A stretch of DNA of 57,647 bases, from contig CAWDXL010000019.1 in the NCBI GenBank assembly GCA_963806325.1, forward strand, positions 1 to 57,647, written 5' to 3'. A model generated the notes under the pieces. That model did not search any database, was not told where the DNA came from, and saw only the letters and a list, made by a program, of their open reading frames with translations. The stretch is from Candidatus Parcubacteria bacterium. Its GTDB lineage: Bacteria; Patescibacteriota; Minisyncoccia; Phycocordibacterales; JAKAEA01. Both the position numbers and the translations under genes were made by a program. Numbering within the stretch: position 1 is the first letter of the stretch; the number at the start of each line of letters is the position of its first letter. Below are positions 4,552 through 57,647 of this stretch, one piece after another.

Positions 4552-5403
4552 ATGAAATCATACAGACCAACAACAAAATCCCGACGCGGCATGACCACCA
4601 TTTCGTATAAGGGTGTCATTACCACAAACAATCCTGAAAAATCATTGACCCATGGTTTCCAGCAATCTGTCGGCCGCAACAGCCAGGGAAAAGTTACCAC
4701 TCGCCACCATGGCGCCGGCCACAAGCGTCTCTATCGCGAAGTTGATTTTGTATACAATAAGAAAAATATTCCCGCAAAAATCGTTTCAGTAGAATATGAT
4801 CCAAACCGAACGGGTTTCATCGCTCTCGCTATCTATGCAGACGGAGAAAAGCGCTACGTGCTTGTGCCTAAGAGCTTGAAAGTAGGGGACACATTCGTTG
4901 TTTCAGAAAAAGCAGATATTAAAACCGGCAATCGTCTTTTAATAAAAAATATTCCTGTCGGTACGTTTGTTTACAACGTTGAGCTTAAGCCTCAAGGCGG
5001 CGGTGTTATTGCCCGCTCAGCCGGCAACTACGCAGAAGTTATTGCTCATGATGCCGGATATGCTCAGCTTCGCATGCCGTCATCTGAAGTCCGAAAAGTT
5101 CTTGAGACTGCCTGGGCATCTGTTGGTGAAGTTTCAAACGAAGAAAACAGGCTCGTTAACCTCGGCAAAGCCGGCCGATCTCGTTGGCTCGGTATTCGCC
5201 CAACAGTCCGCGGTACTGCTCAAAACCCTGTTGACCATCCATACGGAGGAGGTGAAGGCCGCCAGGGACGAGGTACGCGCCGTGCGAAGTCTGTCTATGG
5301 CAAGCCTACCGGCAAAGGCCAGAAGTCACGCCGAGCCAAGAAATACTCCAACGTCTTCATTGTTTCCCGCCGCAAGGTCGGAAAAATCCGAAAGACAGCA
5401 TAG
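4552..5403 (+). CDS. rplB: 50S ribosomal protein L2
   Basis: EYDPNRT, GKAGRSRW and NPVDHPYGGGEG motifs. Confidence 0.98.
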   Translation: MKSYRPTTKSRRGMTTISYKGVITTNNPEKSLTHGFQQSVGRNSQGKVTTRHHGAGHKRLYREVDFVYNKKNIPAKIVSVEYDPNRTGFIALAIYADGEKRYVLVPKSLKVGDTFVVSEKADIKTGNRLLIKNIPVGTFVYNVELKPQGGGVIARSAGNYAEVIAHDAGYAQLRMPSSEVRKVLETAWASVGEVSNEENRLVNLGKAGRSRWLGIRPTVRGTAQNPVDHPYGGGEGRQGRGTRRAKSVYGKPTGKGQKSRRAKKYSNVFIVSRRKVGKIRKTA

Positions 5404-52603: not shown

Positions 52604-54807
52604 TTACTCAAAATGAATTTGATCATCTTCTTTTTCTATAATAGATTTCAAGAGAGGGTAATGGACAAGCTCTTGATCTGATTCAAGCAGCGTGCGTGCT
52701 TCAGTGCGTGCCGCTTCAACCATTTTCAAATTTTTCATTGCCTCCATCGCCAGGTCTGATACACCCCACTGCCGCCGGCCGTACAATTCTCCGGCGCCGC
52801 GCAGCTGCAAATCTGCCTCTGCTAATTCGAAACCATTTTTTGCCGTCTTGAGTGCTTTGAGCCGATCCATTGATTTTTCTGATTTTGTTTCCGAAAAAAT
52901 ATAGCAGTATGCCTGATGATGTGAACGGATAACGCGGCCGCGAAGCTGATGAAGCTGTGATAATCCAAATCTTTCCGCGCCCTCTATTATTATTACAGTA
53001 GCATTGGGAACATTGACGCCGACTTCTATCAATGAAGTTGCGACCAAAATCTGAATTTTATTGTCGGTAAAATCAGACATAATGTCTTCTTTGTCATTCG
53101 GTCGCATTTTGCCATGAATGATTGCGATTTCGTATTCGGGGAAAATATCTTTTTTTAATCGTTTCGCTTCTTCTTTTACGGATTTGGTATTTAACGCCTG
53201 TTCTTTTTCGGGATCAGGCTCGTCGATGCGCGGACAGATCACATATGCCTGTCTGCCGGCTCGCAATTCTTTGCGGATTTTTTCGTATGTCTCGGTTCTT
53301 TTTGTAGGAGGAATGATGTCGGTGATGATGGGTTTGCGGCCTGTTGGCATTTGGTCGAGGAGCGTGAGATCGAGATCGCCGAAAATGGTGAGCGCCAGCG
53401 TGCGGGGAATCGGCGTTGCGGTCATTGAAAGAAGATGGGGGATTCGGCCGTAGTTGTCGGCTTTGCGGGCGAGCAATTTTCGCTGCTTGGTGCCGAAGCG
53501 ATGCTGTTCGTCGATAATGACGTACGCCAGATGCTTAAACGCGACTGCTTTTTGAATGAGTGAATGAGTGCCGATCAAAATCGGAATCTCGCCATTCTTC
53601 ACCCACTTCAAAAGCTGTGTGCGGGAAATATCAGTCCAGCCCTGCGGATTGAATTTTGACGGAAATTTCTTGCAGCCGGATGAAGTAATGAGACCAATCG
53701 AAATGCCAAGATGGAAAAAATACTGAATGAATGATTCAAAATGCTGCTGCGCCAAAATTTCCGTCGGGCACATGTAGGCCACCTGAAGCGTGCCAAATTT
53801 TTGCGCAAATCCTGACGGGAATTTTTCCGAGGGCGGAAGCGTGGGGCGCGTAGTGACGGCGGCATAGGCTGTAGTCGCGGCGACAGCAGTTTTGCCCGAG
53901 CCGACATCTCCTTCGAGAAGCCGTGACATGGGCGTGCCGCGCTTAAAGTCATTAAAATGCCGGCGATGGCTTTTTGCTGAGCCCCCGTAAAAGCAAATGA
54001 AAATCGGGAAGTAAATTTTTCAATGTCTGCGGCATTTTTATCCATCACAAATGCCGGATTCTTCTCATTCTCGATGTGCTCACGCTGTTTGCGGAGTTGG
54101 ATCAAAAACACTTCCTCGAATGCAAAGCGCTTGCGGGCTGCCTCGCTGTCGGATGCTTTTTTTGGCGCATGAATCCAGATGAGCGCAGTTGTGAGCGTCG
54201 GAAGATTATACTTTTTGAGTACATTATCAGGGATTGGATCATGAAGCTGCTCCAAAATTTTGAGCGTGAATAATTTTTGCGCGGCATGGAAAAGCCACTT
54301 TGATGTTACTCCCTGAGTCTCGGAATAGACAGGGTAAAGAATCTGCTCGCCTCCTTCGTGAATGCCAAAAAGTGATGTACCGATTGTTTCCGGTGCCACC
54401 GATATTTTCTCAAATTCAGGATTTGATAAATAAAGTACACCCTGTTTGTCTTGCGAAACGGTGCCAGAAAATTTCGCGTACATATTTTCCTGGAGCATCT
54501 TGGCTACATATGGCTGATGAAACCATGCCGCGCGGATACTGCCTGTCGTGTCGGTAATCGTTGCTTTTGCCATCGGTACTTTTGTACGGAAACTTTTTTT
54601 GAGCTCGAGATTTGTGACTTGGCCGTAAATATTTGCCGTCTGCCCTTTTTCGAGATCTATAATATTTTTAAAATCAACAACATCCCCGTATCTTTGCGGG
54701 AAGTAGTAGAGCAAATTCTGAACTGTTTTTAGTCCAAGCTTGGCAAGACCCTTTTTTTGAATATCCGTGAGCCGGAATACCTCATCGATGCGCGTTTCGG
54801 GATTCAT
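52604..54807 (-). CDS. recG: ATP-dependent DNA helicase RecG (indel near 53950)
   Basis: GDVGSGKT, DEQHRFG, TATPIPRTL and QLHQLRGRV motifs; wedge domain in the upstream ORF. Confidence 0.95.
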
Positions 54808-56273: not shown

Positions 56274-56363
56274 GGAGACGTGGTGGAGTGGTCTAACATA
56301 CCTCTTTGCTAAAGAGGCAGGGGGTAATTCCCCTCGAGGGTTCGAATCCCTCCGTCTCCGCCA
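56274..56363 (+). tRNA. tRNA-Ser (anticodon GCU), CCA encoded
   Basis: GGAGACG/CGTCTCC acceptor; CCTCT-TTGCTAA-AGAGG anticodon arm; long variable arm; GGTTCGAATCC. Confidence 0.95.
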
Positions 56364-56421
56364 GGATTATTTAGTATCGGATGACGTCGAGGCCTATATT
56401 TATAGCCGTTTTTTTGAGGCA

Positions 56422-56459
56422 GTTCGAATCCCTTACCCATTGACCCCTCCGAGGTTCGA
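56422..56459 (+). repeat. Degenerate tRNA-Ser 3' fragments (att-like scars)
   Basis: GTTCGAATCCCT repeats 56340-56351; CCCCTCCGAGGTTCGA resembles 56330-56345. Confidence 0.55.
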
Positions 56460-56482
56460 GCTCTGCTTAAATTTTATTTTTG

Positions 56483-56491
56483 TGCTATAAT
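56483..56491 (+). promoter_or_regulatory. Extended -10 promoter of the ncRNA-RT unit
   Basis: TG-C-TATAAT consensus. Confidence 0.7.
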
Positions 56492-56814
56492 TTGAATATT
56501 CTCTGACAATTCCATAACCCCTTCGACACCGTCTTCTCATGAAGACTCTCCTTCATTGGAGACTAACCACTGTTTTCCCGACAATTACACACGTTGGCGT
56601 GAAGGTTGTAGGTAAAAGTTTTCGCCTGAAAGGGCGTAGACTGTAACCTTAAACCTGCATTACGTTCGTTTCGTTCAATGTATGCATATTCCTGAGTGAT
56701 ATATTCAAGCTGTGAGAACAGTTTGAAAAGGTCGAATTATTAGAGTAATTTTTGAAGGGGTTGCTATCAGGTTAAAAACTGGTAGGCCTCTTCAAATACA
56801 TTAACCAAATTAAT

Positions 56815-56967
56815 ATGGAAAAATTTTTAGCAAAGATGAAAGTCTTTGCAGAGATACAGAGTGTCTCGTTAACCATCTTAAAGCGGTTCGGGTACATAGT
56901 CTTATGGGTAACCATAATCATTAGGTATTTGTTACACACGCTTTGCTTTCAAACTCGTCGTCTTTAA
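56815..56967 (+). CDS. Possible 50-aa hydrophobic peptide embedded in the structured RNA
   Basis: MEKFLAKMKVFAEIQSVSLTILKRFGYIVLWVTIIIRYLLHTLCFQTRRL*; AT-rich leader. Confidence 0.35.
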   Translation: MEKFLAKMKVFAEIQSVSLTILKRFGYIVLWVTIIIRYLLHTLCFQTRRL

Positions 56968-56990
56968 ACTCAAGACGGCGTTTTGTTTTT
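56956..56990 (+). terminator. Intrinsic terminator directly before the RT start codon
   Basis: CGTCGTCTT-TAAACTC-AAGACGGCG then TTTTGTTTTT. Confidence 0.65.
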
Positions 56991-57647
56991 ATGAGAAAAA
57001 TATTTCATTCAAGACCTGATCAAAAAATTCTCTCTGTAGCAGAGCTTTCAACAGTATTAAATGTTTCTGAGAAAGATTTGTATAGATACGCTTCAACGTC
57101 TTCTTATTTTTATAATCAAATTCGATTGAAAAAGAGAGACGGAAATATTCGCATCATTAACGCCCCCTCAGAAGGGCTTAAAAAAGTACAAAGATCAATT
57201 CTTTCAAATTGTCTTAGTAAAAATAGGTTAATGAAATGTGTATACGGATGTTCTTCTGGTAAGTCAATTATCGAAAACGCAAAATCACACATGTGTTCAG
57301 AAAATATGATTAATTTTGATATTAATGATTTCTTTCCTAGTATTCATCACACGAAGATACACCGGCTATATCTAGATATTGGCTGCTCAAAAGAGGTTGC
57401 AGAAATGCTTTGTAAAATTACTACTCTTGATTATGTTCTTCCTCAAGGGTCTCCGACCAGTCCTTATATCTCGAATCTTGTTTTAAAAAACTTAGATGTA
57501 AGAATACTATTGTTAGCAAAGAAAAATAGACTCACTTATACACGGTATTTTGATGATATTACTATATCTGGAACTGATAGAGTATATTCTCTAAAAAATA
57601 CCATAGAAAAAATAATAATTACTGAAGGATACAAAGTAAAAAGATCA
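56991..57647 (+). CDS. Retron-like reverse transcriptase (3'-truncated by the window; not in the ORF track)
   Basis: 219 stop-free codons: KKRDGNIRIINAP..LKKVQR, NAKSH, FDINDFFPSI, LPQGSPTSPYISN, YTRYFDDITISG. Confidence 0.93.
   Translation, partial: MRKIFHSRPDQKILSVAELSTVLNVSEKDLYRYASTSSYFYNQIRLKKRDGNIRIINAPSEGLKKVQRSILSNCLSKNRLMKCVYGCSSGKSIIENAKSHMCSENMINFDINDFFPSIHHTKIHRLYLDIGCSKEVAEMLCKITTLDYVLPQGSPTSPYISNLVLKNLDVRILLLAKKNRLTYTRYFDDITISGTDRVYSLKNTIEKIIITEGYKVKRS

Follow-up and report, generated by a model that had tools for sequence, protein, structure and literature searches.

What is encoded in the 493 nt that lie between a tRNA gene and a reverse transcriptase (RT) gene at the end of a contig from Candidatus Parcubacteria bacterium? 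The stretch of DNA analyzed here (the window, 57,647 nt) is one whole contig (CAWDXL010000019.1, C19) of a 921-kb, 23-contig assembly (GCA_963806325.1), so that the window end is also the contig end. The region in question, positions 56498-56990 of the + strand, sits between a tRNA-Ser(GCT) gene (56274-56363) and an open reading frame (ORF) that starts at 56991. The original prediction, made from the sequence alone, described this region as a + strand RNA of ten hairpins and four GNRA tetraloops, the 5' part of which resembles a retron while the 3' domain is not explained by the retron model. Our best explanation is that these 493 nt, with the RT gene behind them, form the beginning of a compact retron cassette in a small-genome bacterium, with its nearest relatives in metagenome-assembled genomes (MAGs) of Patescibacteria. 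The anatomy as a whole probably runs from a retron RNA through a coding small ORF and a terminator-like hairpin to a retron RT, and we read it as a new retron variant, a compact layout without an earlier description as far as we searched. Our confidence is high for this anatomy and moderate to low for its function; the comparisons that follow demonstrate to which family the RT belongs, that the RNA helices are conserved and covary, that the ORF has a coding signature and that the terminator-like hairpin is conserved.

Relatives were gathered by pattern scans, which yielded 80 loci from genomes (out of 423 relatives) and another 80 from metagenomes (out of 579), and the small ORF was inspected in the 13 nearest of these 160 loci. 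The same upstream layout is found in six related loci, mostly Patescibacteria MAGs, which are the nearest relatives with the full layout (L008-L013). A further locus, L088, has only the ORF, the terminator-like hairpin T2 and the RT, as its contig begins at the small ORF and does not cover the RNA part. The RNA sequence set therefore numbers seven (the window and L008-L013), from about three lineages. By their titles, L008-L011 and L013 are MAGs of Patescibacteria, Paceibacterota or Saccharibacteria, the MAG of L012 is labeled "uncultured bacterium", and L088 comes from a metagenome contig that has no title. In L010-L013 we read the same layout in largely different sequence; with blastn, the upstream region of the window matches only L008 and L009 among the gathered loci, plus an unrelated tRNA-flank repeat in L002. 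The features of the window, all on the + strand, are as follows.

56483-56491, + strand: extended -10 promoter element of the TGnTATAAT type, found as a match to the pattern TGNTAYAMT
56500-56512, + strand: S1, the 5' arm of the long-range helix S1.S3 that closes the alternative fold
56516-56526, + strand: S2, the a1 arm of the original prediction, which includes G56525
56531-56562, + strand: twin short msr-like hairpins HP1 (56531-56546) and HP2 (56547-56562), present in all seven loci
56563-56702, + strand: variable msd-like region with hairpins at 56578-56597, 56602-56650 and 56656-56686
56704-56727, + strand: HPc, a conserved GNRA-capped hairpin (GAGA in the window)
56726-56735, + strand: sequence-conserved single-stranded motif of the AAAGGTCGA type, just 5' of S3
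56735-56746, + strand: S3, the 3' arm of helix S1.S3
56748-56797, + strand: T1, hairpin 7 of the original prediction, with S4 (a2, 56752-56762) as its 5' arm and 56788-56797 as its 3' arm
56815-56967, + strand: small ORF for a basic, hydrophobic, single-helix peptide of 50 amino acids, containing hairpins 8, 9 and 10 of the original prediction
56956-56990, + strand: T2, a 9-bp GC-rich hairpin (56956-56980) with a U-run (56981-56990), ending at the RT start codon
56991-57647, + strand: retron-type reverse transcriptase, 219 N-terminal residues of a protein of about 307, running off the contig end

The small gene and the hairpin before the reverse transcriptase

Judged by its sequence, the RT belongs to the retron clade. 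The fragment matches Pfam RVT_1 (1.3e-19), and its best PADLOC models are all retron RTs, led by RT_III-A (5.8e-67) and II-A (8.7e-59). A full-length homolog of 308 amino acids (P0002) gives the same picture, with RT_III-A at 6.5e-81, II-A at 9.3e-71, XIII at 1e-68 and XI, XII and VI close behind. The NCBIfam model retron_St85_RT matches at 1.7e-54, below its cut-off, and is also the nearest NCBIfam model for P0002 at 219.6 bits, just below the cut-off of 235; the Drt2 and Drt3a models reach only about 1e-12. Among the 12 best sequence matches in the PDB, two carry a generic polymerase name and the others, where named, are retron RTs, with Ec86 first at 6e-37. The retron motif NAxxH reads N-A-K-S-H in the window and is near-invariant in our protein alignment (A1). 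The position of the VTG motif falls beyond the contig end, and the homologs have VTG or VNG there.

Directly upstream of this gene, we find that the small ORF at 56815-56967 has homologs of 59-83 codons, starting at the same place, in L008-L013 and L088. For the coding test we used the rows that align without gaps (the window, L008, L009, L010, L011 and L088), and L012 and L013, which differ in length, were omitted. In frame 0 there are 52 synonymous and 124 non-synonymous changes, a BLOSUM62 sum of +1 and no stops, versus 28 and 147 changes, a sum of -123 and 62 stops in frame 1, and 24 and 158 changes, a sum of -104 and 18 stops in frame 2. Differences fall 87/60/129 on the three codon positions (p 2e-6), and 34/20/48 in two independent pairs (p 0.003). 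By our own count, 141, 141, 141, 147, 147, 144, 147 and 165 nt separate the ATG from the 5' arm of T2 in the eight loci, in each case a multiple of three.

The eight peptides are 50-83 amino acids long, with a net charge of +5 or +6 and a best 19-residue hydropathy of 1.4-2.2. A profile built from them detects 15 further relatives of 60-86 amino acids among 409 candidates; those that carry a name are "hypothetical protein" entries from MAGs of Patescibacteria or Parcubacteria, and all of them lack Pfam domains. For the L009 peptide, AlphaFold2 with a 20-row alignment predicts one helix spanning residues 2-50, with a mean pLDDT (per-residue confidence) of 81.

The ORF runs into T2, which a terminator scanner calls terminator-like (56956-56980 plus TTTTGTTTTT, followed by the RT ATG). 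With its GC-rich stem directly before a U-run, T2 fits the form of a putative intrinsic terminator. An equivalent hairpin and U-run is present in all eight loci, made of different stems with energies of -12.4 to -18.5 kcal/mol, and RNAalifold keeps the T2 pairs. L010 and L088 read the 3' arm of T2 in different frames, so the constraint on this arm acts on the RNA. The ends of the ORFs vary around this hairpin: the ORF TGA overlaps the RT ATG (ATGA) in L009, L010, L012 and L088, the ORF continues past the RT ATG in L008, L011 and L013, and in the window a TAA at 56965-56967, in the T2 loop, ends it nine codons earlier than in L009. The in-frame codons after the window stop resemble the L009 tail because they form the 3' arm of the hairpin. 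Of the 38 loci covered by a strict scan for a hairpin, a U-run and an ATG, 6 have this arrangement, and these all belong to the close clade; the scan missed L013, L014 and L022, in which folding gives similar hairpins despite the miss.

L014 (2950-3000) and L022 (1925-1965), with their T2-like hairpin and U-run immediately ahead of the RT start, are more distant relatives. One of these two loci bears the title of a Bathyarchaeia archaeon MAG, an ORF of 44 amino acids lies upstream in L014, and the upstream RNAs of both look different.

In 8 of 8 loci T2 overlaps the end of the ORF and, looking like an intrinsic terminator, immediately precedes the RT start, which raises the question of whether the ORF is only a regulatory leader peptide that acts by attenuation via T2, the true effector lying beyond the contig end or being absent. 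The hairpin nucleotides dictate the C-terminal residues of the peptide, in a frame that varies between loci, and the peptide matches no known family, as a leader would allow. The amino acids are nevertheless constrained, in that the second codon position changes least and substitutions are conservative in frame 0 only, and 50-83 amino acids is long for a leader peptide. Nor do the complete loci offer another effector. In L008, L009 and L011 no gene beside the cassette is conserved: the RT is followed by unrelated genes, most of them on the opposite strand (they encode a PKD-domain protein, a DUF5681 protein, a uracil-DNA glycosylase and a methylpurine glycosylase), and upstream of the cassette L008 has a glutaredoxin gene and a tRNA-Arg. 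Since no other gene is conserved nearby, the conserved unit consists of the RNA, the small ORF and the RT, and we consider a pure leader function unlikely.

Folding of the upstream RNA

The 5' part of the region has the msr/msd anatomy that the original prediction had seen in it, attached to a retron-type RT. A TGNTAYAMT match lies 5-8 nt before S1 in six of the seven loci (L013 has none by this pattern), and the predicted 5' end of the RNA is at about 56495-56499; the promoter scanner made no call because there is no -35 element. The proposed a1 and a2 arms are where they had been placed (AACCCCTTC at 56516-56524, followed by G56525, and GAAGGGGTT at 56754-56762), and their pairing (56516-56526 with 56752-56762, helix S2.S4) is kept in all seven loci, with 5 of 9 pairs changed on both sides. 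Its duplex energy is -18.3 kcal/mol in the window, where 0 of 2000 shuffles are as good, and ranges from -16.6 to -19.0 kcal/mol across loci (p <= 0.0035 versus shuffles).

We find that a second long-range helix, S1.S3, covaries as well. The duplex of S1 with 56735-56746 has -6.1 kcal/mol and p 0.0475 versus shuffles in the window and p <= 0.0015 in each of the six other loci, and 6 of its 11 pairs are changed on both sides. In addition, the 3' arm of T1 (56788-56797) resembles a1 and competes with it for a2. The interpretation given with the original prediction was half right. The a1/a2 pair it proposed does covary; what it missed is the second long-range helix and the competition of hairpin 7 for a2.

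Helix pair counts were taken from a MAFFT alignment (A4) with column pairs hand-picked to maximise pairing, so that they lean towards structure, and slid-partner controls and per-locus shuffles served as safeguards; L013 enters the counts as gaps in HP1 and HP2. On this basis S2.S4 is paired in 85.7% of cells, HPc in 92.7% (3 of 8 pairs changed on both sides) and the lower stem of T1 in 93.5% (4 of 11), and both-sided changes affect 3 of 6 pairs in HP1 and 2 of 5 in HP2. The alternative fold, made of S1.S3, HP1, HP2, HPc and the T1 lower stem, is paired in 89.8% of cells, versus 38-54% with slid partners; it has 18 of 41 pairs changed on both sides, a level reached by 0 of 500 shuffles. For the set of helices in the a1/a2 fold the values are 90.2% of cells and 13 of 28 pairs.

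Between the conserved helices, the msd-like region is not conserved in sequence, and every locus has two or three hairpins there, one of them long; we infer that this region is the RT template. HPc is capped by GAGA in the window; L010 and L011 have GCAA instead, and L012 has GAAA. The AAAGGTCGA-type motif that follows reads GGTCG in six loci and GTCCG, at the same place, in L009; our guess is that it is an RT recognition or template-start site. T1 was considered as a terminator and not adopted, as a U5 run is present there in L010-L012 but not in the window.

S1.S3 and S2.S4 cross, and therefore cannot share one nested structure. From the predicted 5' end to the ORF ATG, the unconstrained minimum free energy (MFE) structure contains S1.S3 and T1 in all seven loci, and forcing S2.S4 costs 2.3-9.4 kcal/mol across loci (3.4 in the window). 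When the RNA is cut two bases after S4, S2.S4 is fully formed and S1.S3 is absent in six of the seven loci, the exception being L013. The ensemble of the longer RNA has about zero S2.S4 pairs and 10-12 S1.S3 pairs, and the constant element across the full-length folds is that a2 is held in T1. We infer from these foldings that the choice between the folds is a switch set by the 3' end of the RNA.

G56525, which had been proposed as a branching G, is not a conserved unpaired G: it lies inside the S2.S4 helix. The pair at this position is G.U in the window, G-C in L010-L013 and A-U in L009, and L008 has no counterpart, so that a G stands there in five of the seven loci. A conserved branching G is the sole defining retron feature among those tested that these loci lack. 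Together with the covariation of both crossing helices and the sequence-conserved motif at their junction, this would suit a retron-like RT that makes no classical branched msDNA (multicopy single-stranded DNA), the crossing helices forming a long-range pseudoknot that positions the template for some other mode of cDNA synthesis, such as unbranched priming or priming from a cleaved or folded-back 3' end. There is a parallel in the DRT2 defence RTs, which use pseudoknotted RNAs (PMC12039810). We regard this alternative as quite unlikely: the best hidden Markov model and PDB matches are all retron RTs, the terminal repeats and the twin short and long hairpins follow the canonical msr/msd plan, and by our own reasoning the linkers between the arms are so short (about 3-5 nt on either side in the window) that forming both helices at once is sterically doubtful. 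Among the papers found, none appears to describe a natural retron pseudoknot or switch.

Taken as a whole, the 493 nt fold as originally described. Each of the ten stems folds alone as drawn, with energies from -3.2 kcal/mol for the weakest (56578-56597) to -22.5 kcal/mol (56751-56796). The MFE structure of 56498-56990 has 11 hairpin loops, the ten listed and the previously unlisted 56956-56980; hairpin 3 (56578-56597) is not robust, other small stems replacing it in a shorter folded stretch. Four of the five tetraloops in this structure are GNRA loops, at the four places claimed (GAAA at 56628-56631, GAGA at 56714-56717, GAAA at 56838-56841 and GUAA at 56908-56911), while among 300 dinucleotide shuffles 277 have no GNRA loop, 22 have one, one has two and none has three or more. 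The folding energy of -151.9 kcal/mol compares with -110.6 +/- 5.9 for shuffles (z -6.98, 0 of 100 as good). Because the reverse strand folds weakly (z -2.21), these values support the + strand reading, and the two halves are structured separately (56498-56800, z -6.53; 56801-56990, z -4.75). In Rfam, only the nearby tRNAs match the window region at E <= 1, and the RNA of seven related loci matches no family at gathering threshold.

Hairpins 8-10 of the 3' domain are therefore real as structures, but they lie inside the protein-coding small ORF, with the terminator-like hairpin at its end, and the 3' domain appears to be mainly the structured mRNA of this conserved ORF plus T2. The folding z of the ORF body is -3.86 in the window and -3.09, -5.50, -3.43, -4.08, -3.89, -2.32 and -4.03 in the other seven loci. 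Each subclade has a consensus structure of two domains (39 pairs with 5 compensatory in one, 31 pairs with 7 compensatory in the other), and hairpins 8, 9 and 10 belong to that of the window's subclade. As RNAalifold across both subclades retains only T2 and a 4-bp stem, we claim no single common fold for the ORF body. A reading of the full 493 nt as a single non-coding RNA that partners the RT, with 56815-56967 untranslated and conserved for its structure, is very unlikely: the unusual structure of the ORF region in all eight homologs (z -2.3 to -5.5), the compensatory pairs within each subclade and, by our own reading, a GNRA apical loop on the long hairpin at the same ORF place but in different codons in six of eight loci would fit it, but the frame 0 stop count, the codon-position asymmetry and the BLOSUM sums all favor coding, the ATG is conserved, length differences up to T2 are multiples of three, and T2 alone aligns as a common structure across both subclades.

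Two further pairings appear when the 493 nt are folded together. The spacer after S1 (56505-56516) pairs with the start codon region of the small ORF at 56815-56821 (UUCCAU with AUGGAA); L008 and L009 have no equivalent, so this pairing is probably specific to this copy or due to chance. The pairing of 56522-56527 with 56732-56737 was rejected as a conserved pairing, L008 being without it.

A proposed mechanism and its relation to known systems

Based on these data, we propose a model in which a single promoter at about 56483-56491 would drive one transcript of four parts, in the order RNA, peptide mRNA, terminal hairpin and RT. The first part would be a msr/msd-type RNA of about 300 nt (56498-56797), the second a heavily folded mRNA for the 50-aa basic hydrophobic single-helix peptide (56815-56967), the third the GC-rich hairpin and U-run (56956-56990) that overlaps the ORF end and abuts the RT start codon, and the fourth the retron RT (56991 onward). 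The a1/a2 duplex would be accessible only as long as the RNA stops short of the 3' arm of hairpin 7, that is, in short or nascent RNA. In read-through RNA, a2 would be captured by the a1-like decoy and the 5' end would pair with 56735-56746. The same transcript region may thus serve either as RT template or as mRNA. In the template form, the RT would make msDNA from the variable hairpins, with the inner end of the a1/a2 duplex as the priming site. Ribosomes on the small ORF would melt T2 and so couple RT expression to peptide expression, by antitermination or translational coupling. The peptide itself might be the retron effector, a membrane-active toxin restrained by RT-msDNA and used in abortive-infection defence, by analogy with other retrons. 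In its full form, with a length-sensing template RNA, a 50-aa single-helix toxin as a built-in effector of the type I toxin kind, a terminator opened by translation of this toxin so that the RT would be made only together with it, RNA-gated msDNA and possibly priming without a G or at an otherwise unusual site, this model is tentative, and we hold it to be rather unlikely.

Several points weigh against the cassette model as we present it. The anatomy was derived from sequence and predicted folds, and the transcript ends, the translation of the ORF and the cDNA are all predictions; the helix counts carry the lean towards structure described above. The evidence for a switch consists of nearest-neighbor energies, and the crossing helices may form a pseudoknot instead. 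In the fold of the full 493 nt the 5' arm takes other partners (56505-56516 pairs with the ORF start region and 56522-56527 with 56732-56737), so that the alternative fold is not unique. L008 has no G between S1 and HP1, and no G is common to all seven loci at either candidate a1 end or from the 5' end to HP1; with no conserved G at the a1 end, classical priming from the 2'-OH of a G is at most a candidate mechanism in this clade. The T2 of the window is marginal against shuffles (z -1.91, 9 of 200 as good). The peptides have no match in Pfam or PADLOC and no usable match in a protein atlas, and their hydropathy is borderline for a membrane span; given this, the word toxin expresses an analogy only. 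Finally, the window RT is cut by the contig end, which places the intactness of this copy and its downstream genes outside the sequence covered.

The cassette shares with classical retrons such as Ec86 (Eco1) a retron-clade RT with NAxxH and an RNA that immediately precedes the RT gene on its strand. As in those systems, inverted repeats close the RNA at its ends, a pair of short hairpins follows a1, and longer ones precede a2. The cassette differs from them in having no conserved branching G, in the second closing helix and the a1-like decoy that compete with a1/a2, and in the small ORF and terminator-like hairpin between RNA and RT. A canonical retron RNA has terminal inverted repeats, one to three short msr hairpins and one or more long msd stem-loops (Mestre et al. 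2020, PMC7736814); the 5' RNA follows this plan, to which the cassette adds a competing fold, a decoy arm, an embedded ORF and T2.

Retrons have been sorted into 13 types by their accessory proteins, and the one that defines type III is PRTase-like (Mestre et al. 2020, PMC7736814). RT_III-A is the best PADLOC model for both the window fragment and P0002, but we find no PRTase-like protein in the flanks of L008, L009 and L011, and with this defining partner absent we do not file the cassette as type III-A. Type IV retrons have a protein with two transmembrane segments, whose gene follows the RT gene or overlaps it; in types V, VI and X the accessory proteins are small and bind DNA (PMC7736814). 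Like the type IV (Ec48-like) systems, the cassette has a small hydrophobic protein of no known family as the only partner of the RT; unlike them, it has one predicted helix of about 49 residues, encoded upstream between RNA and RT, and no type IV model is among the 25 best PADLOC matches. A single-helix protein of about 50 amino acids between RNA and RT fits none of the 13 types as they are described in the available part of Mestre et al. 2020 (PMC7736814). Among the papers found on retrons, none is about retrons in Patescibacteria, to judge by titles and the beginnings of abstracts, and none was found that joins a retron, a small transmembrane protein and a reverse transcriptase.

A different likeness is to type I toxin-antitoxin systems. 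Their mRNAs, such as hok, encode hydrophobic single-helix peptides of about 50 amino acids, are highly folded and refold depending on their 3' end. The small single-helix peptide, the folded mRNA and the predicted refolding by the RNA 3' end all recall this arrangement. Small membrane toxins of the type I kind stay below about 60 amino acids and have one hydrophobic helix, and the peptides here span 50-83 amino acids with one predicted helix. Here, however, the partner is a retron RT with its RNA, there is no sequence relation to hok-type genes, and no antisense RNA was seen, although no search for one was made.

If the peptide is the effector, this would be a very compact retron, of about 1.5 kb in the complete relatives, and one from bacteria of the candidate phyla. 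The two mutually exclusive, covarying folds would be a concrete case of control at the RNA level over whether a retron transcript acts as template or messenger, and the clade, in which no branching G is conserved, offers a test of the generality of priming from the 2'-OH of a G. The cassette is also a case of a small gene hiding within an apparently purely structural RNA leader.

Distribution and genomic setting

A protein search gave 40 matches to the RT among 222 candidates, the best with 60% identity and lengths of 305-314 amino acids. In sixty related genomes there is no close RT (0 of 11 in the same family), and only two weak matches at the order level, with E about 1e-5; since no close copy is found there, the distribution is patchy. 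A protein-pattern scan of genome contigs with the RT fragment alone found no close relatives, and in viral contigs no RT match exceeds 41% identity. With P0002 as the query, the missing part of the RT was not found elsewhere in the assembly. Four DNA sequencing runs (searched as contigs only) gave short, low-depth pieces, with heavy cover of the tRNA only. The same genome has a second, unrelated RT gene (G000:C2 65360-65971, L003 1405-2313), which encodes 302 amino acids with an RVT_1 match at 2.3e-22 and a YCDD-type motif; a 115-aa ORF lies just upstream of it on the opposite strand.

The cassette also adjoins tRNA genes in several relatives (L008 2435-2509, L012 2363-2450, L013 4097-4168 and L011 4508-4581); for instance, the tRNA-Arg of L008 ends 11 nt upstream of the promoter box, and the RT of L012 is followed by a tRNA-Ser. 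Such adjacency hints at tRNA-linked insertion sites. In the window, the 99 nt directly after tRNA-Ser(GCT) (56364-56462) are 96% identical to L002 1463-1561 (G000:C16), a copy that immediately follows tRNA-Ser(TGA) on a different contig of this genome. This stretch has T-arm-like GGTTCGA repeats, and the identity stops at the start of the retron cassette. Possible origins of the stretch are a shared tRNA trailer and the remnant of an integration site.

Elsewhere in the window, two overlapping ORFs on the - strand (52604-53929 and 53608-54807, 441 and 399 amino acids) look like parts of one helicase-type gene, which may reflect a frameshift or an assembly error. In L009, a full-length match to the Rfam LOOT RNA (4907-5025, - strand; 70.1 bits, gathering threshold 46.4) lies about 1 kb downstream of the RT.

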